A DNA stretch of 64,000 bases from Chlorobi bacterium Chlorobi_1 (GCA_900299075.1 OMIK01000065.1:13059-77058); one strand, 5' to 3'. Counted from the stretch's first letter, positions 9,120 through 53,740 are shown. The notes: generated by a model from the letters alone, not told the origin. Numbers and translations: made by a program.

Positions 9120-10672
9120 TGCACGCGGGCCTCGATCCGGATGGTGCGTCCAAGCACCTCCTCGAGCCAGGGCTTCAGGGATTCGGCTGCCCACAGTTCG
9201 ATGTCGGGCTCGTATTTCGTGGCCGCATCGAGCACGATCTCCTGCTCGCCGATGGTGCAGGAGATGCCTTGCACGTTCTGGCGGTGCCCCCGTTCGAGGC
9301 CGTTGGCGACCCGAAGGATGCCGGAGAGCACATCGACGGCACGCTGGTGCGACGGCTTGAGCTGGGCATAGAGGGGGTGCTTGGCCGAAGGCGGGTTCTT
9401 CCGGTGGTAGCGGGCGACGTTGCCGATGATCTCGACCTCTGCGGGGGCGAAGCCCCGGAGGTCCGCATTCATGATGATATACTGGCTGTGCTTGTGGTGG
9501 GCCGCAATCGAGATGAACTCGCCGATGTTGTGCAGCAGGGCTGCGTACTCGAGCAGTTCCCGGTAGTGCGGCTTGAGGCCGTGCAGCGGCTGGAGCTGAT
9601 CGAAGAGCATCACCGACAGCCTGGCCACCTGCAGCGAATGGGGGCGGTGCCAGTTGCAGCGGTACCCCAGCTCCACCACGCTCTGGCGGCGGATGTCGAG
9701 CCGGCCGTCGCCCTCGCCCCTGCCACGGAGGCCCGAGACGTAGTGCACCACCATCCCCTCGCGGAGTGCCGATTCCGAGACTACGACCTCCTGCAGCCCG
9801 AACACCCTGAAGATGGTATCGATCAGGATGATGCCGGGGACGATCAGGTCGACCCGCTTCTCGTCGAGGCCGGTCAGCTTGCGCCTCGCAGACGAATCGA
9901 GATGGATCACCGAGCGGTAGAAACGCTCGAACTCCTCCCGCGTGAAGCCGCTCTGGTTGAGCCCACCGGACTGGTCGGCGTCGCTGCCGGACCTGATCAT
10001 GCGTGCGATGTTCAGCGCCGTGCCCGAAGAGGCTATCCCCCTCGACACGCCGAGTCGCTTCGACTTTTCGGCCGAAGAGTAGAGCTCCGCTGCGCAGAAC
10101 TGCTCCAGCAGCTTCAGCTCCTGGGGAGAGATGGGATCGGTGGTGACAAAACGCTCCAGCATCCTGGCGACCCCGATCTTCCGGCTCTCGAGCAGGTGGA
10201 CCTCGTCGCAGCAGGCGATGATGAACTCGACCGAACCGCCGCCGATGTCGAACAGCAGGTCGGGGGTCTCGCCGAGCCGGCCCGCGTTGCGCACCCCGTA
10301 GTAGATGAACTGCGCCTCCTCCTTGCCGGAGATGACCTTCACCCTGAGGCCGGTCTCCTTCCTGACCATCTCGATGAAGAGGTCGCGGTTCAGGGCTTCC
10401 CGGATGGCGCTGGTCGCGAAAGCGATCACATTCTGCGGTTCGACGCCTCGCTGGGTCGCGAGCACGAGGAACTTCTTCAGCGTGGCGACACCCTCCCGCA
10501 TGGCCCGATCGTCGAGCATCTTCGTGGAGATGCTCCCCCGGCCGATGCAGATCATGTCCTTGACCCGGTCGATCTCGACGATCCCCTTGCCGGGGCTCTC
10601 CTCGACGACGACCATATGGAAGGAGTTGGTGCCGAGGTCGATGGCGGCCACCCTGATGCTCTCTGCTGGCAT
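9116..10672 (-). CDS. ppx: Ppx/GppA exopolyphosphatase with HD domain
   Basis: AAIDLGTNSFH, ATSAIREA, DIGGGSVE, LREG, LLHNIG; start set at MPAESIRV. Confidence 0.95.
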   Translation of the reverse strand: MPAESIRVAAIDLGTNSFHMVVVEESPGKGIVEIDRVKDMICIGRGSISTKMLDDRAMREGVATLKKFLVLATQRGVEPQNVIAFATSAIREALNRDLFIEMVRKETGLRVKVISGKEEAQFIYYGVRNAGRLGETPDLLFDIGGGSVEFIIACCDEVHLLESRKIGVARMLERFVTTDPISPQELKLLEQFCAAELYSSAEKSKRLGVSRGIASSGTALNIARMIRSGSDADQSGGLNQSGFTREEFERFYRSVIHLDSSARRKLTGLDEKRVDLIVPGIILIDTIFRVFGLQEVVVSESALREGMVVHYVSGLRGRGEGDGRLDIRRQSVVELGYRCNWHRPHSLQVARLSVMLFDQLQPLHGLKPHYRELLEYAALLHNIGEFISIAAHHKHSQYIIMNADLRGFAPAEVEIIGNVARYHRKNPPSAKHPLYAQLKPSHQRAVDVLSGILRVANGLERGHRQNVQGISCTIGEQEIVLDAATKYEPDIELWAAESLKPWLEEVLGRTIRIEARVQ

Positions 10673-45379: not shown

Positions 45380-45904
45380 CTACCAGTTCGAAACCATCCT
45401 GTTGAAGAGCGCATCGGCCGCCTGCTCCATCGCATTGGCGATGGCCGCCTGCTGGGCGCTGTAGCTGCCTACCGTATAGTCGGAAAAGCCCACGAACGAC
45501 TGGGAAAAAATCCTGGTATTCTTGACCCGGTCGTCGAAATCGGCCTTGACCACGATGGTGATCCGGTTGGTGACGGCTCGCTCCGTTCCACTGCCGAGCT
45601 GGCTCGGTTCGTCCGAGTAGGAGATGATGACACCGGTCAGGAGCGCATCGGCGCGCGAGGGGTCGGACTCGATCGACAGGCTGCTCTGCGACTCGATCTT
45701 GTCGGTGACCTTGCGGGTGATGGTCTCACGAAACTGCGCGATTCCCGCCTGGGAGGAGTCGTCGAACAGCGGCACGGCAACCCGGTTCAGGTGCGGAGGG
45801 AGGGATGCCCCGGAAAAGCTGTAGCACCCCTGGAGCGTTGCCGAAACCATGCAGAGCAGCGCCAGCAGCAGCGTCCTTCCCGTTTTCCAGTCGATAAGCC
45901 TCAT
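45380..45904 (-). CDS. lptE: LPS assembly lipoprotein LptE-like
   Basis: Lipobox LQGC followed by YSFSGAS; ITIVVKADFDD. Confidence 0.8.
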   Translation of the reverse strand: MRLIDWKTGRTLLLALLCMVSATLQGCYSFSGASLPPHLNRVAVPLFDDSSQAGIAQFRETITRKVTDKIESQSSLSIESDPSRADALLTGVIISYSDEPSQLGSGTERAVTNRITIVVKADFDDRVKNTRIFSQSFVGFSDYTVGSYSAQQAAIANAMEQAADALFNRMVSNW

Positions 45905-45918
45905 GGTTCCCGCCCGTT

Positions 45919-46743
45919 TCAGTAGGTTCTTCTGTCGATCCTGTCGAACATTTTACGAAAAGGATAGCTCAAAAGCATGAGCTTCTTCCGTTTGCCGGAG
46001 AGCGCGGAGAGGTAGAGCCCGGTCTTCCCGTCGCTCCACGCCGAAGCCATCTTCACGGCGTACCGTGCCGCCCGCTCCGGCGACTGGGCGAAGATGTCCT
46101 GGATGGTGTTGAAGGTACCGAGCTGGCGCATGAACTCGGGCGTGGGGTCGGCCGGCGTGACGATGCTGGTCCTGACGAGCCCGGGATGCAGGAGCATCAC
46201 CGAGATGTCCGTTTTGCGGTACTCTTCGGCCATGGCGTAGGTGAAGCGGGCGATCGCCGCCTTGGTGGAGCCGTAGGCCGAGATGTAGGGGGTGTTCGAT
46301 TTGGGGTCGGTACCCGAGCCGGCGAGGTTGATGATCTTGCCTTTGCGCCCGGATGCGAGGAAGTAGCGTACCGCGGCACGGCTGCCGTAATAGGTCCCCT
46401 TGAGGTTGGTGTCGATGACCCGGCCCCAGGCCTCCGGGCTGCTGTCGCCGACGTTCTCGAAGGGGTCGGAGATGCCGGCGTTGTTGACGAAGCAGTCGAT
46501 GGCGCCGAACCTGGCGACCGAAGCGTTCACCAGCCCCTCCAGCTCCTCGCAGGAGGAGGCGTCGCAGGGGTGTCCGAACACCGAACCTTCGGGAAAGCCC
46601 CGGACGGCCGCCTCGACGTTTTCCCTCCGGCTGGAGGTGATGACCACCCTCGCCCCCTCCCTGACGAATTCACGGGCGATGGCGATCCCTATACCGCGGG
46701 TCGAACCCGTGATGACGGCGACTTTTCCTTCGAGCTTGCCCAT
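45919..46743 (-). CDS. Classical SDR oxidoreductase
   Basis: TGSTRGIG, VNNAG, YGSTK catalytic motif, HPGLVRT. Confidence 0.9.
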   Translation of the reverse strand: MGKLEGKVAVITGSTRGIGIAIAREFVREGARVVITSSRRENVEAAVRGFPEGSVFGHPCDASSCEELEGLVNASVARFGAIDCFVNNAGISDPFENVGDSSPEAWGRVIDTNLKGTYYGSRAAVRYFLASGRKGKIINLAGSGTDPKSNTPYISAYGSTKAAIARFTYAMAEEYRKTDISVMLLHPGLVRTSIVTPADPTPEFMRQLGTFNTIQDIFAQSPERAARYAVKMASAWSDGKTGLYLSALSGKRKKLMLLSYPFRKMFDRIDRRTY

Positions 46744-46779
46744 TTTTGCTGGCGACTGGATGGAGGGGTCAGGGCGGGC

Positions 46780-48084
46780 TCAGCGCTTTGCGCCGGCCAT
46801 CTGGTCCACCATGGCCTGGAGCTCGGGGCGACCCTCCGCATAGGCCTCGATCGGGATGCCGCCCTCGATCGCCTCCCACGCCTGGCGGATGCTCCGGGCA
46901 CCGGCCTTGGGGCCCATGGGGTGGCCGAACACCCCGCGCCCCGGCACGAAGCCGAAGTCGGAGCTGCCGACCTTCCGGTAGACCGTCTCGAGCGTCAGGG
47001 CCGAGTCGCTGCCGCCCGGCACGGGCAGGCAGGGCTTGATATGGCCCATCGGCTTGACGCACTCCTCGATGTTCTCCAGCACCTCCTCTTCGGGAGTCAT
47101 CATCCGGCCGCCGAATCCGGGCATGATGACCGCGTCGAGGCCGGCAAGCCGCTGCAGCTTGGTCATCACCCTCGAGTGGATCCCGTACTTCTCCATGCGG
47201 CTGAAGGCGGCAATGAAGGGGAAATGGCCGATCAGCGGCACCTGCGTGTAGTTGCTCAGCATGCGGACGGCGCTGAGGCCCACCGGCAGGGCATTGATCA
47301 GGAGGGCATTGGCGCCGTTGCGCACGGCGACGTCGTGCTTCTCGATCAGGCTGTCCACCTCGTCAGTGATGTTGGCCAGGTAGATCTTCGGTTCGCCCGT
47401 CTCCGCCTCCGCATGGCGGCGCGCCTCCCCGAGGTGTGCCGCGCGGTCGGCCATGGCCGACCAGGTAACGTCGGCCAGCATCTCGTCGTCCTTGGCGATG
47501 TCGAGGCCTCCAAGCCAGCTCTGGTGGGCGATCTCGGCGAACTCTTCGGGGCTCAGGCCGATGTTCGGCTTGACGACGCCGAAAAAGATCGGGCGGTCAT
47601 AGGCCTTCAGGATCTTGCGCAACCCGTCGATGCCGAACTTCGGCCCTTCGCAGTCCGCAAGGTAGGAGTCCGGAAACTCGATATCCATGAGCTTCACCAC
47701 CGGGACACCGGGAGTGAAGAAGGTCCCCTCCCCGCAGACGGCGGTCAGGAGGTTGGGGAGCTTCGGGCCGAAATTGCAGTGCGGGTGGGCGATGGTCACG
47801 CGGCAGGCGTGGATCTTCCCGCTCTCCGAGTGCTTGACCGGATAGCTGATCTGCTCCAGTTCGGCCGTCACCTCCAGGCCGATCACCTTGGCCGCATGGA
47901 TGGGCCGGAAATCCTCGTCCCTGTCGACCCGTTTCCACTGGGCGGTGGACTGTTCGCTGCAGAAGTGGGCAAGCGCCGTCTCGATGTCGCCGACGCATTC
48001 GAGATAGTAGTCGAGAACCAGGTACTGCTCCATGTCGAGCTCGGCCCTGTCGGCAAAGAACCCTCTGATGTCTTCAGAATTCAT
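46780..48084 (-). CDS. rlp: RuBisCO-like protein (form IV, Chlorobi/Photo type)
   Basis: SEQSTA, KPNIGL (K177 replaced by N), KDDE carbamylation motif, GHFP in place of [14 protein letters not shown]. Confidence 0.95.
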
Positions 48085-48120
48085 AATAAAAGATCAACCT
48101 CTGCAGTTTTTTGTAAAATA

Positions 48121-48144
48121 GGGGGGCGGTACCTCCCGCCCCCC
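48121..48144 (-). terminator. GC-rich hairpin between the lsrF-like gene and rlp
   Basis: ggggggcgg-tacctc-ccgcccccc: 9-bp stem followed on the minus strand by tatttt. Confidence 0.5.
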
Positions 48145-48168
48145 ACGAACAGTCAACATCAGGCAAGC

Positions 48169-48206
48169 GATAATGGATAATCGTCCTTCTTTCCATTATC
48201 CATTAC
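48169..48206. repeat. Heptamer-unit (GATAATG) palindrome
   Basis: taatggataat pairs with attatccatta; overlaps the lsrF-like stop codon. Confidence 0.7.
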
Positions 48207-49084
48207 CCCTCGGCCCTGATCGAGTTGAAGTACTCGAACGCCTCGGCCGGCGTGGCGTTCTCGTGCACGATCCTGTTGACCGCCTTCATCATGGCGAGCG
48301 GAGCGTCGCTCTGGAAGATGTTGCGACCCATGTCGACACCCGCGGCGCCCTCCTGGACAGCCTTCCAGGACATGGTCAGCGCGTCGAGCTCGGGGAGCTT
48401 CTTGCCGCCGGCCATCACGATCGGCACCGGGCAGGAGGCCACGACGGTCTCGAAATCCTCCTCGACATAGTAGGTCTTCACGAGCTGTGCGCCCAGCTCC
48501 GCGCAGATGCGGGTGGCAAGGCGGAAGTACTTGGCGTCGCGCACCATGTCCTTGCCGACCGCGGTCACGGCCATGGTCGGGATGCCGTAGCGCAGGCCCA
48601 TGTCGATCAGCCTGGTCATGTTCTTGATCGAGCGGGTCTCGTACTCGCCGCCGATGAAGACCTGCAGGGTGATGCAGGCGACGTTCATGCGGACGGCGTC
48701 CTCGATGTCGACCGCCAGCTCCTCGTCGGAGAGCTCCTTCAGGATGCTCGGGCCGCCGCTGCACCGCATGACGACCGCCTTGTTGAGGGTCGGGGGCACG
48801 GTCGTGCGCAGGATGCCGCGGGTAAGCATGATGGCGTCGGCGTGCGGCATGAGCGGCACGATGTTCACGTCGGGGCGCTCGAGGCCGGTGGTCGGGCCCT
48901 GGAAGTAGCCGTGGTCGATGGCGAACATGACCGTCCTGCCGCTCTCCGGCCTGAAGATGCGCGCGAGGCGGTTCTTCATGCCCCAGTCGTAGGAGTGGGC
49001 GCCTTTGAGGTAGAAGCCGTAGTTGTTCACCGGGATATCGGTATAGTACTCCTTCGCCTGTTTGTCCTTGTCGTATTCCGCCAT
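48203..49084 (-). CDS. lsrF: LsrF-like class I aldolase/thiolase (DhnA family)
   Basis: [36 protein letters not shown] (Schiff-base Lys), [16 protein letters not shown]. Confidence 0.88.
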
Positions 49085-49134
49085 CGTCGGGGCCTCCTGG
49101 TTAAGTTGTGTTGGTTGCGATATTCCTGGTGCGG

Positions 49135-51255
49135 TCAGCGCAGCGCGGCTGCGATGTTGCCGCCGTCGACCGTGGTCACCGACCCAGTCGTCTTCGTTTC
49201 GAGGGCAAGGTGCACGAAGGCGTCGGCCACATCCTCGGCCGTCACCTCCAGTCCGAGCAGGTTGCCCGCCATATACTCCCGTTCGCTCAGTCCGCGTGCC
49301 ATCGAACGGGCCTTGATCATCTCGGGCGTGAGGAGGCCGCTGCGGATCCGGTCGGCGTTCACCCCGTTGGCGCGGATGCCGTCCCTTCCGTGGTCCAGGG
49401 CGTACTGCCTGAGCAGGAAGAGGGTCGCCGCCTTGGGCAGGCCGTAGGGGCCGAAGTCGGGGCCGGGGTTCACCGCCTGCTTCGAGACGTTGAACAGCAG
49501 GACGCCGCCGGTGCCCTGCAGGCGCATGATGCGTACGGCGTTCTGGGCGATCGCCTGGTGCGAGAAGAAGTTGAGTTCGAAGCTCTTCCTGAGCAGCTCG
49601 TCGGACACGTCGCCGATCCTGCCCTGCAGGGCGACGCCGACATTCGAGACGACGATGTCGATGCCGCCGAAGGTGTGGACGATGGCATCGAAGGCACGGC
49701 GCACGGCGTCGCGGTCGGTCACGTCGCAAGGGATCGTCAGCGTGCCGGGGCCGAGCTCCCCCGCCGCCCGCTCGAGGGCCGCCGGGTCGAGGTCCATGAT
49801 CGCCACCTCCGCACCCTTGCTGCGGAACGCCTTGGCCGTGGCGAGGCCGATCGCGCCGGCGCCGCCGGTGACGAGCGCCACCTTGCCTGCGAACTCGCCG
49901 CCGTTGCGGCTTTTTTTCACCTTGGCCTGCTCCATGTGCCAGTACTCGATCTCGAAAGCGTCGCGTTCGGAGATGGAGCGGAAGCTGCCGACCGATTCCG
50001 CATCGAGCATCGCCAGGGCCGACTGTTCGGCGATGTCCGCCGTGAGCTTGGCGTCAGCCACGCTCCGGCCGAGTCCGAACAGGCCGATACCGCGGACCAG
50101 CACGACCCTCGGCATCGGATCGATCATGCCGACCTCCATGCCGGCCGCGGCGCGGTTGCGCTCGAAATAGGCACGGTAGCCGTCGACGTAAGTCGCCACG
50201 CGCTCGCGGACGGCTGCCTTGAAGCCGTCGAGATCGGCCGCATCGGGAGCGGGCAGCACCAGCGGCTGGTTCTTGGTGCGGATGATGAAGTCGGGGGTCA
50301 TGACGCCCTTCGCGACGATCGATTCGAGCGCATCGGCGTTGACGAACCCGTCGAGCTCCTTCGAAGACCTGAACTCGAGCACGAACCCCTCGTAGTCCTT
50401 CTCGCCGGGGGTCTTCTCGAACGAACAGGCGCCCCTGACGATCGGGGCGACCTCCTCGATGCCCGCGAGTACCGGCGGGAGCTGGACCGAAGGGAAGCTC
50501 TTGCGTCCGGCGGAGGCGATGCGCCCCTCGATGCGGGTGACGCCGTCGATCATCCGGTCGTAAGCCTCGCGGGCCGTGTCGCCGAAGGTCACGAGCCCGT
50601 GGTTGTGCAGCACCATCCCTTCGATGGAGGGGTCGGCGTCGTAGGCGTTCAGGGCAAGGCGCGCCAGGCCGAGACCCGGCTGGATATAGGGCACCGTGCC
50701 GTACCCCTTCCCGAGGGCCTCGCGGCACAGGCGGTCGCCGTCGGCCTGGTTGCTGAGGGTCAGCAGCGCGAGGGAGTGGGTATGGAAGATGTAGCGATGG
50801 GGCAGGAAGGCGTGCAGGAGCGTCTCGATCGAGGGGCTCAGCGACCGGTGCACCATCTGGTCGGTCAGGGTGAAGAGGTTCAGGTAGAGGAAGTTCTTGA
50901 ACTCCCCTGTCGAAAAGCGCTTGATATCATCCTCGCTGTGGCGCTCGCCGGAGGCGTACATGCGCTGGAGCCTCTGGAGCGGTTCGATCCGGACCGGCGT
51001 GAAGTCGTGCACGTCGACCGAGGCGAGGTTGACGCCGCTGGCCTTGATGAAGATGACGTTGGACTGGTTGCCGATGAAGTCGGTGAGCACGCTCTTGACC
51101 GAGGTGTTCCCTCCACCGTGCATGACCAGCCGGTCGTCCCGGCCGAGGATCCGGGAGGCGTAGACCAGGTCGACGAGTTCAGCCGGAGTGTCGGCGGCAT
51201 CGATCCGGCCGGCGGCCGTCGAGTGCAATTCGGAGTCGTTCCAGAGATTCTGCAT
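49135..51255 (-). CDS. Bifunctional class II aldolase / SDR dehydrogenase (RhaEW-like)
   Basis: [20 protein letters not shown] and NHG Zn ligands; C-terminal [18 protein letters not shown]. Confidence 0.92.
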
Positions 51256-51306
51256 GTCGAAGTTGGGAGCTCTTGTGAATGCTTGCCTGTTAGTGCCGGA
51301 GCCGCC

Positions 51307-51528
51307 TCAGGAGGCGCCGCCCTGCATCTTTTTCGCGTGGCGGTTCCTGATCATGAATCCCGAAAGGTAGATCAGGATGAAACCGGGAATGACGATCCCG
51401 AGGAACAGCGTCTGGTGCTGGGGCGTCCGGAGCTGCCCGGAGGACCAGATCATCCAGGCCAGTAGCGCCCAGGCAGGCCCGGCGAAGGCGAAGGTGAGGT
51501 TCCAGAGTTTCGTGAAGCTGTGGTTCAT
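51307..51528 (-). CDS. Small two-TM hypothetical membrane protein (73 aa)
   Basis: MNHSFTKLWNLTFAFAGPAWALLAW...; fills the gap between bchV and the aldolase/SDR gene. Confidence 0.65.
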   Translation of the reverse strand: MNHSFTKLWNLTFAFAGPAWALLAWMIWSSGQLRTPQHQTLFLGIVIPGFILIYLSGFMIRNRHAKKMQGGAS

Positions 51529-51571
51529 GGTATAGGGTGTCGGATTGTGCCGGATTCGCAGGGTGCCTGGC

Positions 51572-52045
51572 TCAGATATGCCCCTGGACACGCAGCTTCT
51601 TTTCGTTGCTCTTCTCCAGGATGATGCGGATCAGGTACTGGAGGGCGTTGATGACATAGGTCATGTAGGCGATGTACGCCTCGGTGACCAGCACCTTTTC
51701 CGAATAGCCCATCCAGGCCATGACAAAGTAGAGCAGGTGGAAGAAGGCCGCCACCGTGCTGCCCACATCCTCCCACAGGAACTCCGGCGAGTAGACCCAC
51801 TTGTCGAAGATCTCCTTTTCGAAGAACATGCCGGTGATGAAGAGGATCGCGAAGAAGAGCGTCTTGAACAGGATCGCGATGCTGATCCAGAAAAAGTCGA
51901 TCTGGACGATATTGTTGGCGTAGAGGGTGTTGAGTACGACGCCGGTAAGGAAGATGAGGAACTGGATGGGGGCAAGGATGATCTGGAGTTCCGTCCAGAC
52001 CGAGGCATTTCGTTTGGCGAGCTGTTCGGGTGTATAACGGGGCAT
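51572..52045 (-). CDS. bchV: 3-vinyl (bacterio)chlorophyllide hydratase, BchF/BchV family; probably BchV
   Basis: [34 protein letters not shown]. The paralog call rests on adjacency to a bchQ-like gene and rlp, as recalled for C. tepidum. Confidence 0.8.
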
Positions 52046-52333
52046 GGCCTTGCTTGTATGAAAGATATAGTGCCTTACCGGCTGTATGAAGCAGGGAATA
52101 TAGTAAAATCCGCATGCCCCGGAAAACCCGCCGGAGCGGAAAAATAGGAGCCGGCTGAAGCTGTCGTGAAGCCATTGGCACTCCAGTTGCAATATGAATG
52201 TTTTGGCAAGACGCACATGTTTTGTACGTTTGACATTCGACAGGTTCGTCGTCAGTTCAAAGCCCACTGGAACCCTTCGAATCTACTCGACTTGAGCTTT
52301 CTTGACTCAGCAACAACCCGGTTATCAGGCCCG

Positions 52334-53740
52334 ATGCAAGTCTCTGATCCAGAATCGACCAAACCACTCAGGATCCTTCTGGTCTCGCCCCAGGGCAAGA
52401 TGGACGACGACCGCAACCAGAAGCCGCTGTTCCACATGGCGCTCGGCGTGCTGGCAAGCATCACCCCGAAGCAGCACCATCTGGAGATGGTCGACGAGCA
52501 CTTCCACGACGAGATCGACTACGACGGGGAGTACGACCTGGTCGGCATTACCTCGAGGACCCTCGAGGCGACCAGGGCCTACGAGATCGCGGACGAGTTC
52601 AGGAGGCGCGGGAAGAGGGTCGTCATGGGCGGGCTCCATATCTCCTTCAACCCGGACGAGGCGCAGCAGCACGCCGACTCCATCGTCGTCGGCGAAGCGG
52701 ACAACCTCTGGGCCACCCTGCTCGACGACGTGGCCAACGGCAGGCTGCAGGCGCGCTACGACGCGAAAGAGTTCCCTCCGGTCAACAGCATCGTGCCGAT
52801 CGACTACGCCCGGATCGCCCAGGCGTCGAAGCGCGAAAAGGTGGACGGCACCAAGTCGATCCCGATCTACGTCACCAGGGGCTGTCCCTTCAGCTGCTCC
52901 TTCTGCGTCACCCCGAACTTCACGGGGAAGAAGTACCGCTCCCAGGACCCCGAATCGCTCAAGGCGCAGGTAGAGGCCGCCAAGAAGCACTTCTTCAAGT
53001 CGAACGGCAGGAACTCGAAGCCCTGGTTCATGCTCACCGACGAGAACCTCGGCATCAACAAGAAGAGGCTCTGGGAGTCCCTCGACCTCCTCAAGGAGTG
53101 CGACATCACCTTCAGCGTCTTCCTCAGCATCAACTTCCTCGAGGACCGGCAGACCGTGCAGAAGCTGGTCGACGCCGGCTGCAACTTCGTGCTGGCAGGC
53201 CTCGAGTCGATCAAGCAGAGCACCCTGGAAGCCTACAACAAGGGGCACGTCAACTCGGCCGAGAAGTATGCCAGGATCATCGACGATTGCCGCAAGGCGG
53301 GCCTGAACATCCAGGGCAACTTCCTCTTCAACCCGGCCATCGACACCTTCGAGGATATCGACGAGCTGGTGGAGTTCGTGGAGAAGAACCACATCTTCAT
53401 GCCAATCTTCCAGATCATCACCCCCTACCCGGGCACCAGGATGTACCACGACTACAAGGAGCAGGGGCTGATCACCGACGAGGACTGGGAGAAGTACAAC
53501 GCCCTCCACCTGGTCATCAAATCGGAGCGCTACGAACCGCTGCTCTTCCAGTACAAGGTGCTCTCGAGCTACGTCAGCGTCTACTCGTGGCGCCAGATCG
53601 CCGCACGGGCCTGGCACAACCCGAGGAAGCTGATCAACCTGATCACCAGCCTCGCCTTCAGGAACCATCTGCGCCACGAACTCAGGAACTTCGAGCGGAA
53701 ACACGCCATGACCCCTGCGATGCTCGCCGGCGTCAAATAG
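52334..53740 (+). CDS. bchQ: B12-binding radical SAM methyltransferase; probably bacteriochlorophyllide C-8(2) methyltransferase
   Basis: Cobalamin-binding N-domain (MGGLHIS) and CPFSCSFC motif; divergent from the bchV-like gene. Confidence 0.8.

Follow-up and report, generated by a model that had tools for sequence, protein, structure and literature searches.

This report concerns a stretch of 64,000 nucleotides from the Chlorobi bacterium Chlorobi_1 (GCA_900299075.1, OMIK01000065.1:13059-77058), hereafter the window, and within it a locus at 45.4-53.7 kb where six co-oriented minus-strand genes comprise bchV, a small open reading frame (ORF), a class II aldolase::short-chain dehydrogenase/reductase (SDR) fusion, lsrF, the gene of a RuBisCO-like protein (RLP) and a stand-alone SDR gene, with lptE next in line. 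Comparative evidence supports the view that the fusion and LsrF make up a conserved module of their own, which is widespread without the RLP. This module may convert the deoxy-sugar waste left by radical S-adenosylmethionine (SAM) enzymes into dihydroxyacetone phosphate (DHAP) and acetyl-CoA, a proposal to which we give an even chance of being right. The locus itself appears to consist of two units side by side, bchV-small gene-fusion-lsrF and rlp-sdr-lptE. The original prediction had drawn the fusion, LsrF, the RLP and the stand-alone SDR into one deoxypentose route; what stands of it, on grounds of genomic context, is a fusion-LsrF module fed by a phosphorylase and MtnA, and what lacks support is a part for the RLP and the stand-alone SDR in that route. 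The gene cluster as such had been described as known in Chlorobi, correctly, as it is the same locus as the long-known RLP locus of C. tepidum, reportedly familiar since the RLP mutant of Hanson and Tabita in 2001. Within the searchable literature, no paper was found that links LsrF or the fusion to 5'-deoxyadenosine salvage or to an RLP.

LsrF and the aldolase-dehydrogenase fusion

The LsrF of the window scores 514.6 bits against NF006081 (cut-off 297) and aligns with E. coli LsrF over 288 residues without gaps at 61% identity (406 bits against PDB 3GLC). The Schiff-base lysine of the E. coli enzyme (K203, in KTYY) is aligned and identical, and the DHG, KTYY and DMGRN motifs are invariant among eight diverse LsrF sequences (alignment A3). 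From this similarity, LsrF very probably cleaves the diketone of the autoinducer-2 (AI-2) pathway or a very close one. The remainder of that pathway is missing: a whole-genome tblastn search with the E. coli proteins returned no LsrG, LsrB, LsrC, LsrD or LsrR, LuxS is absent from the genome, and no LsrK ortholog was found, the only FGGY kinase having a glycerol-kinase N-terminal signature and a weak LsrK match of 26%. The diketone must therefore come from another source. Compared with LsrF of the lsr AI-2 operon in E. coli and Salmonella (PDB 3GLC, 4P2V), the enzyme thus shares the Schiff-base lysine and the predicted reaction; the surroundings differ in lacking an AI-2 importer, LsrK, LsrG, LsrR and LuxS, and the diketone would arise by dehydrogenation of a deoxypentulose phosphate, not from phospho-AI-2.

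The fusion is recognized by NF006193 (1312.6 bits, cut-off 1213) and NF006192 (837.1 against 639), and fails TIGR02632 (RhaD-ADH) with 420.1 bits against a cut-off of 567.75. Its aldolase domain, which is not an ortholog of Ald2/DrdA, keeps the GN (phosphate-binding) and PSxE (acid/base) motifs and HxH with the third histidine, all aligned with FucA and RhaD. In the SDR domain an aspartate follows the second strand (IMDLD), which suggests the use of NAD, by the rule of thumb that reads NAD or NADP(H) from second-strand residues. The catalytic motifs of the locus had been described as apparently intact, and KDDE, VKTYY, HTH/NHG and YxxxK were indeed all found in the translations. The bifunctional rhamnulose-1-phosphate aldolase-lactaldehyde dehydrogenase RhaEW/YuxG shares its two-domain architecture with the fusion, to which it is related along the full length; the fusion differs in its shortfall from the model (420 against 567.75), in the absence of rhamnose genes here, and in having LsrF as an obligate partner.

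The pairing is strict among relatives. Fusion and LsrF co-occur in 19/19 related genomes that have either, and relatives without LsrF carry a stand-alone FucA-like aldolase instead of the fusion; these stand-alone aldolases (G020, G026) score above the cut-off of no model and have no mtn neighbours. The fusion is the sole PF00596 (class II aldolase) member in the window genome and in all genomes of the same genus. In lineage g6, which is related to Chloroherpeton, fusion and lsrF form a two-gene unit away from bch genes, on a contig separate from yjbQ-rlp.

The module extends to distant bacteria. LsrF homologs 74-79% identical to that of the window occur in Planctomycetota and other uncultured bacteria, with an SDR directly after them and sometimes a 390-residue class II aldolase nearby. 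These SDRs are 34-36% identical to the SDR domain of the fusion over its full length, as against 23-26% to the stand-alone SDR, and the alignment of the 390-residue aldolase with the fusion spans residues 27-447 of the latter. Of 41 metagenome loci that are 8 kb or longer, 27 have a fusion-type SDR beside LsrF and 22 have the extended aldolase. An mtnA-fusion-lsrF cassette is found in SAR324, at five loci from different samples (L215, L224-L227), where MtnA scores 438 bits and the fusion passes NF006196 (846 against a cut-off of 831). In these marine SAR324 the cassette adjoins pyruvate kinase and a fatty-acid beta-oxidation operon.

Two further loci hold members of the LsrF family. Among 400 sampled genomes of the phylum, the only LsrF-like gene outside Chlorobiales (52% identical) belongs to a non-Chlorobi member of Bacteroidota (L135, G060:C2:149001-169000), where it accompanies DhaK/DhaL-type kinase subunits and a rhamnulose-1-phosphate aldolase, which suggests yet another context for the family. 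An unrelated locus (L190, Ga0209202_1000013, 94497-115363) contains an FGGY kinase, a HemL-like aminotransferase, a FucA-like aldolase, an LsrF homolog (69%) and a Zn-dependent alcohol dehydrogenase, and additionally a YkrW/MtnW-like RLP with 311 bits, below cut-off.

Predicted feed-in steps and chemistry

The window had been said to hold neither a phosphorylase nor MtnA, which is correct; both are encoded elsewhere in the same genome, which is of the Chlorobaculum type (2.0 Mb, 99.8% complete). There, mtnA (TIGR00512, 388.1 bits, cut-off 279) lies 25 nt downstream of a nucleoside phosphorylase gene, and the genome check for MtnA- and MtnP-type genes, whose absence had been offered as a refutation of the route, thus uncovered an adjacent pair. 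Of 31 related genomes, 30 encode an MtnA. The phosphorylase and mtnA genes are neighbours in nearly all genomes of the genus, lie roughly 1 kb from each other in lineage g6, and are not adjacent in relatives without the module. The phosphorylase is the sole PF01048 member of the genome, which hence has no MtnN and no second methylthioadenosine phosphorylase (MTAP); it matches the models of inosine/guanosine purine nucleoside phosphorylase (PunA; NF006054, 386.7 bits), with 73 bits for MTAP. Waste to be salvaged could be plentiful, as the genome carries 27 radical SAM genes, and each molecule of bacteriochlorophyll (BChl) c needs several radical SAM turnovers and is accompanied by several molecules of 5'-deoxyadenosine. 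With no class II aldolase in the genome other than the fusion, the MtnA product must be consumed by either the fusion or the RLP.

In the proposed route, the phosphorylase and MtnA would take 5'-deoxyadenosine, and probably methylthioadenosine too, to 5-deoxyribulose-1-phosphate, as their families and adjacency suggest. The NAD-type SDR domain of the fusion would oxidize this compound at C4, and LsrF, given its identity to the E. coli enzyme, would move the acetyl group of the product to CoA, yielding DHAP and acetyl-CoA. The claim that such an oxidation gives the LsrF substrate holds on paper: with the structures written out, 5-deoxyribulose-1-phosphate (CH2OP-CO-CHOH-CHOH-CH3) oxidized at C4 becomes CH2OP-CO-CHOH-CO-CH3, which is 3-hydroxy-2,4-pentanedione-5-phosphate. 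DHAP and acetyl-CoA would both be directly usable by an anaerobic phototroph with a reverse tricarboxylic acid cycle. For the aldolase domain we infer that it would most likely interconvert 5-deoxyribulose-1-phosphate with DHAP and acetaldehyde, as an epimerizing or aldehyde-capturing side reaction and a way out for the methylthio analogue; no other part of the model is as weak. Beaudoin et al. give an equilibrium constant of about 1e-4 for aldol cleavage of 5-deoxyribulose-1-phosphate, a value that favours the sugar (PMC6079011). Oxidation followed by thiolysis would pull the pathway forward, avoiding both free acetaldehyde and the unfavourable aldol equilibrium.

The DHAP shunt of Rhodospirillum rubrum, extraintestinal E. 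coli and Bacillus thuringiensis (MtnP or MtnN with MtnK/DrdK, then MtnA/DrdI and Ald2/DrdA) has the input predicted for the route here, 5'-deoxyadenosine and methylthioadenosine, and proceeds to DHAP through a phosphorylase, an MtnA-type isomerase and an enzyme of the class II aldolase fold, each with a putative counterpart here. The difference is that here the aldolase forms one protein with an SDR and has the LsrF thiolase as a constant companion, that the phosphorylase is of the PunA and not the MTAP type, and that acetyl-CoA (with NADH) is predicted as the second product instead of free acetaldehyde. It could be argued that the locus encodes a plain DHAP shunt all the same, with the aldolase domain cleaving 5-deoxyribulose-1-phosphate or methylthioribulose-1-phosphate, the SDR domain oxidizing or reducing the aldehyde as RhaEW does with lactaldehyde, and LsrF being separate or accessory. 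The homology of the fusion to RhaD-ADH along its whole length (TIGR02632, 420 bits) and the conserved catalytic residues of the aldolase are in keeping with this, as are the lack of any other class II aldolase in this genome with its phosphorylase-MtnA pair, the replacement by the fusion of the relatives' stand-alone aldolase, and the location of mtnA directly upstream of the fusion gene in SAR324. Such a shunt, however, leaves no role for LsrF, which is paired with the fusion in all 19 genomes, follows it in SAR324 and lies beside the split halves in many phyla. A very different substrate is unlikely for an LsrF 61% identical to the AI-2 enzyme, and aldol cleavage alone is thermodynamically unfavourable (PMC6079011). 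A plain shunt is, on balance, rather unlikely.

Two apparent transcription units

The features of the locus are collected in Table 1. As had been stated, bchV, the small membrane protein gene, the fusion, lsrF, rlp and sdr are co-oriented and divergent from a B12-binding radical SAM gene, and every one of them is present as an intact ORF. The lsrF gene begins at 49084 and not where the long ORF begins. No equivalog model of NCBIfam scores above its cut-off for the radical SAM protein, which we take to be BchQ solely by synteny with C. tepidum.

Table 1. Genes and other features of the locus, in window coordinates
Feature	Position	Strand	Evidence and remarks
LptE-family lipoprotein gene	45380..45904	-	PF04390, 53 bits; closes the apparent rlp-sdr-lptE unit, outside the proposed chemistry
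Stand-alone classical SDR, 274 aa	45919..46743	-	PF00106, 151 bits; TGxxxGxG and YGSTK
Form IV 'Photo' RLP	46780..48084	-	PF00016; KDDE; ortholog of C. tepidum RLP
GC-rich hairpin (9 G-C pairs) followed by UAUUUU	48111..48144	-	Within the lsrF-rlp spacer (118 nt); probably an intrinsic terminator or attenuator
LsrF ortholog (3-hydroxy-2,4-pentanedione-5-phosphate thiolase type)	48203..49084	-	NF006081; VKTYY
Class II aldolase (N-terminal, ~450 aa)::classical SDR (C-terminal) fusion, 706 aa	49135..51255	-	NF006193; HTH, NHG, YGLPK
73-aa hydrophobic protein	51307..51528	-	No Pfam or NCBIfam match
BchF/BchV-family 3-vinyl bacteriochlorophyllide hydratase	51572..52051	-	TIGR02020, 212.7 bits (cut-off 101)
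B12-binding radical SAM protein	52331..53740	+	PF04055 and PF02310; divergent from bchV

An RLP profile scan with one genome per species, whose best 80 loci all come from Chlorobiaceae, and tblastn comparison with the window proteins show that the order fusion-lsrF-rlp-sdr-lptE is kept in every Chlorobiaceae locus with enough flank. Because the order recurs in this way, the arrangement is not due to chance. The genes are not evenly spaced: the lsrF-rlp spacer measures 118 nt in the window and has a family median of 107 nt, against 3-74 nt for the remaining junctions. Downstream of bchV the gaps through lsrF are 43, 51 and 50 nt, with no terminator-like sites there, and at the other end sdr and lptE are separated by 14 nt in the window and by a median of 3 nt in 40 Chlorobiaceae loci. 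The dehydrogenase gene is apparently translationally coupled to lptE, which encodes a lipoprotein of lipopolysaccharide assembly.

The folding energy of the spacer is -39.4 kcal/mol (z = -3.06), and, by strict criteria that require a hairpin plus a T-run, 27/72 Chlorobiaceae loci have a terminator-like site at the lsrF-rlp junction, as against 0-1 at each of the five other junctions. The sequence of the stems varies between species and the pairing is kept. The hairpin is thus a probable terminator or attenuator of bchV-small gene-fusion-lsrF ahead of rlp-sdr-lptE, and read-through across it may occur. The rlp-sdr-lptE genes would accordingly form a separate transcription unit that is not required for the first. 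Short repeats seem to arise readily in this spacer: the closest relative (L001, around 9893-9940) has 6-7 tandem TTGATAG copies just upstream of the terminator-like hairpin, and the same spot in the window holds a 9-bp inverted repeat (GGATAATGG...CCATTATCC).

The RLP, YjbQ and the stand-alone SDR

The RLP scores 864 bits against the C. tepidum RLP over residues 1-429 (PDB 1TEL/1YKW), with 671 bits for R. palustris RLP2 (2QYG), both of the same form IV 'Photo' clade, and its K198, D200 and E201 (KDDE) are invariant (alignment A1). It falls below the cut-off of all six NCBIfam models of the RuBisCO superfamily (RuBisCO, MtnW, OiaX). RLPs 67-70% identical to it are found in Rhodopseudomonas, Ectothiorhodospira, Chloroherpeton and lineage g6 (L084, genome G025), whose contexts were taken from contigs encoding RLP homologues. 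In all four lineages a YjbQ/UPF0047 (PF01894) gene lies a few bases upstream of the RLP gene, and no LsrF, fusion or SDR gene is near it; LsrF is absent altogether from the Rhodopseudomonas and Ectothiorhodospira genomes and from the Chloroherpeton-like G020. Among 31 related genomes, RLP and YjbQ co-occur in every one that is at least 90% complete, the lone exception being an 84%-complete draft without an RLP match. The window, unlike the RLP loci examined outside Chlorobiaceae, contains no yjbQ; the RLP-type YjbQ of this genome, 65% identical to the RLP-adjacent ones, is encoded on a different contig, with an alpha-amylase-family gene on one side and dxs on the other. What is new about the RLP is this reading of its context, namely that its conserved partner across lineages is YjbQ and not the neighbouring enzymes, and the RLP would work with the YjbQ encoded elsewhere in the genome on some ketose phosphate. 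The stand-alone SDR, with the motifs TGSTRGIG, VVITSSRRE and YGSTK, has SSRR after its second strand, which suggests the use of NADP(H) by the rule given above; it is linked to rlp and not to the LsrF module.

The placement of the RLP and the stand-alone SDR in the same route as LsrF, as originally proposed, would make one four-enzyme pathway in which the RLP serves as tautomerase or isomerase in place of LsrG and the SDR carries out a second redox step. The universal order fusion-lsrF-rlp-sdr in Chlorobiaceae and the absence of LsrG from the genome lend this some appeal, and RLPs do catalyse enolizations of ketose phosphates, R. palustris RLP2 slowly isomerizing methylthioribulose-1-phosphate (PMC5893883). 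The terminator-like hairpin between lsrF and rlp points the other way, as do the RLPs, 67-70% identical and paired with YjbQ, in genomes without LsrF. The module, moreover, occurs without an RLP or a stand-alone SDR in lineage g6, in the BChl e island described below, in SAR324 and in Planctomycetota, and C4 oxidation of 5-deoxyribulose-1-phosphate yields the LsrF substrate directly, so that an isomerase is not needed. The single pathway is consequently regarded as improbable, and this part of the original prediction lacks support.

A link of the RLP to another fate of the same sugar has also been considered. In the methylthioadenosine-isoprenoid shunt of R. rubrum, a DeepYkr RLP and a cupin methylsulfurylase act downstream of MtnA, with a possible link to 1-deoxy-D-xylulose-5-phosphate (DXP); the RLP here differs in belonging to another clade and in having YjbQ instead of the cupin as its partner, and R. 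palustris RLP2, of the Photo clade itself, is reported to have negligible activity and no role in methylthioadenosine metabolism (PMC5893883). The RLP unit, possibly with the SDRs, could join the waste sugar to DXP, so that RLP and YjbQ feed the synthesis of isoprenoids, thiamine and pyridoxal. More specifically, the Photo RLP with YjbQ could shift the carbonyl of 5-deoxyribulose-1-phosphate from C2 to C4, which yields a 1-deoxypentulose-5-phosphate and would give DXP directly from radical SAM waste; this carbonyl shift is put forward as a long shot. With the methylthio analogue, the R. rubrum RLP carries out the same 1,3-shift, as does RLP2 at a slow rate (PMC5893883). One type of YjbQ always accompanies the RLP, as its neighbour or elsewhere in the genome, and that YjbQ gene is directly upstream of dxs in 18/18 genomes of the same genus. 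The adjacency to dxs, however, is limited to one genus and is possibly a leftover of RLP relocation; in lineages g3 and g6 yjbQ adjoins the RLP gene and dxs lies elsewhere. In this genome and in Chloroherpeton alike, yjbQ has an alpha-amylase-family gene beside it. A DXP link through the RLP unit accordingly receives little credence.

On its contig here (G000:C36:31499-33929; L097, 7446-9933), yjbQ overlaps the end of the alpha-amylase-family gene by 4 nt and dxs follows about 80 nt downstream. In Chloroherpeton and lineage g6, the same type of yjbQ is instead followed by the RLP gene and then by a large alpha-amylase-family gene.

Pigment genes and a second copy of the pair

The link of the locus to bchV is frequent and not universal: bchV and the small gene lie upstream of the fusion in most of the 80 loci and are missing in six (L070, L074-L076, L078, L080). 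The 73-residue gene tracks bchV throughout, being present wherever bchV is upstream and gone where bchV is gone. Divergent adjacency to bchQ, to which the original prediction had tied the route, is seen in only about 18 of the 80 loci, so that proximity to the radical SAM methylase is not something the locus conserves; the specific tie to bchQ lacks support.

BChl e-producing species with a layout like that of C. phaeobacteroides have a second cluster (L136, G145:C1:209001-229000; L138, G181:C1:2823001-2843000). Its order is a bchV paralog, a diverged copy of the small gene (39%), a 401-residue radical SAM gene, second copies of the fusion (70%) and of LsrF (87%), and a 513-residue protein, with a bchQ paralog divergent in one of these genomes and with neither an RLP nor a counterpart of the stand-alone SDR. 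The 513-residue gene is probably cruB, and an FrhB-like gene and a further SDR are present too. Harada et al. described bciD as clustered with cruB and a bchF-like gene (PMC3613366), and the 401-residue radical SAM gene occupies the place of bciD; that paper makes no mention of the fusion or lsrF sugar-phosphate genes. An intact second pair beside another radical SAM enzyme fits the salvage idea.

The same observations could be taken to mean that fusion and LsrF act directly in the biosynthesis or regulation of BChl c, d or e, as they are co-oriented with bchV at short gaps and the pair is duplicated inside a BChl e-specific island. The module occurs, however, in the non-phototrophic SAR324 and Planctomycetota, and in lineage g6 at a site apart from bch genes, which makes a direct pigment role very improbable; we also know of no unassigned step of the BChl c pathway that needs sugar-phosphate chemistry.

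Processing of imported AI-2 or catabolism of a 6-deoxyhexose such as rhamnose or fucose, to which the family names point (the LsrF equivalog and the RhaD-ADH-like fusion), is scarcely credible, as the genome lacks the Lsr transporter, kinase, isomerase and regulator as well as LuxS, the fusion is below the RhaD-ADH cut-off, the only FGGY kinase appears to be a glycerol kinase, and green sulfur bacteria are, to our knowledge, not users of rhamnose or fucose.

Weighing the salvage proposal

Conversion of radical SAM waste by the fusion-LsrF module is the reading preferred here, and several points weigh against it. Its first step assumes that a phosphorylase of the PunA type, so classed by sequence, acts on 5'-deoxyadenosine, and a search confined to the amidohydrolase family found no adenosine or methylthioadenosine deaminase in the genome, the only PF01979 member being dihydroorotase. 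Should the SDR domain take the MtnA product as its direct substrate, the route would have no need of the aldolase domain, conserved and apparently active though it is. In RhaEW, cleavage comes first and oxidation of the aldehyde second; the same order here, by analogy, would leave LsrF unexplained rather than the aldolase. The clustering with mtnA is confined to a single lineage among the 41 metagenome loci of at least 8 kb, and a block duplication could account for the pair in the BChl e island. Finally, rlp lies universally between lsrF and sdr in Chlorobiaceae, and the RLP may have a functional tie to the module after all.

Implications

The division of the locus into two units shows which genes of the RLP locus should be tested together, and with which substrate. 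If RLP and YjbQ did shift the carbonyl as described, green sulfur and purple bacteria would recycle a by-product of pigment tailoring into isoprenoid tails, carotenoids, thiamine and pyridoxal, with the fusion and LsrF taking the overflow to DHAP and acetyl-CoA. This would provide a function for an RLP clade that has lacked one since 2001, and for the UPF0047/YjbQ family.

As to the scale of the waste, a rough estimate, not computed here, is that the flux of 5-deoxyribose at low light could near a tenth of cell carbon. If the salvage proposal is true, LsrF would be more than a quencher of AI-2: it would catalyse the last step of a carbon-conserving, acetaldehyde-free salvage of 5'-deoxyadenosine that is widespread, occurring in Chlorobiaceae, SAR324, Planctomycetota and others, and many orphan annotations as 'autoinducer-2 aldolase' and 'rhamnose utilisation RhaD' would be wrong.

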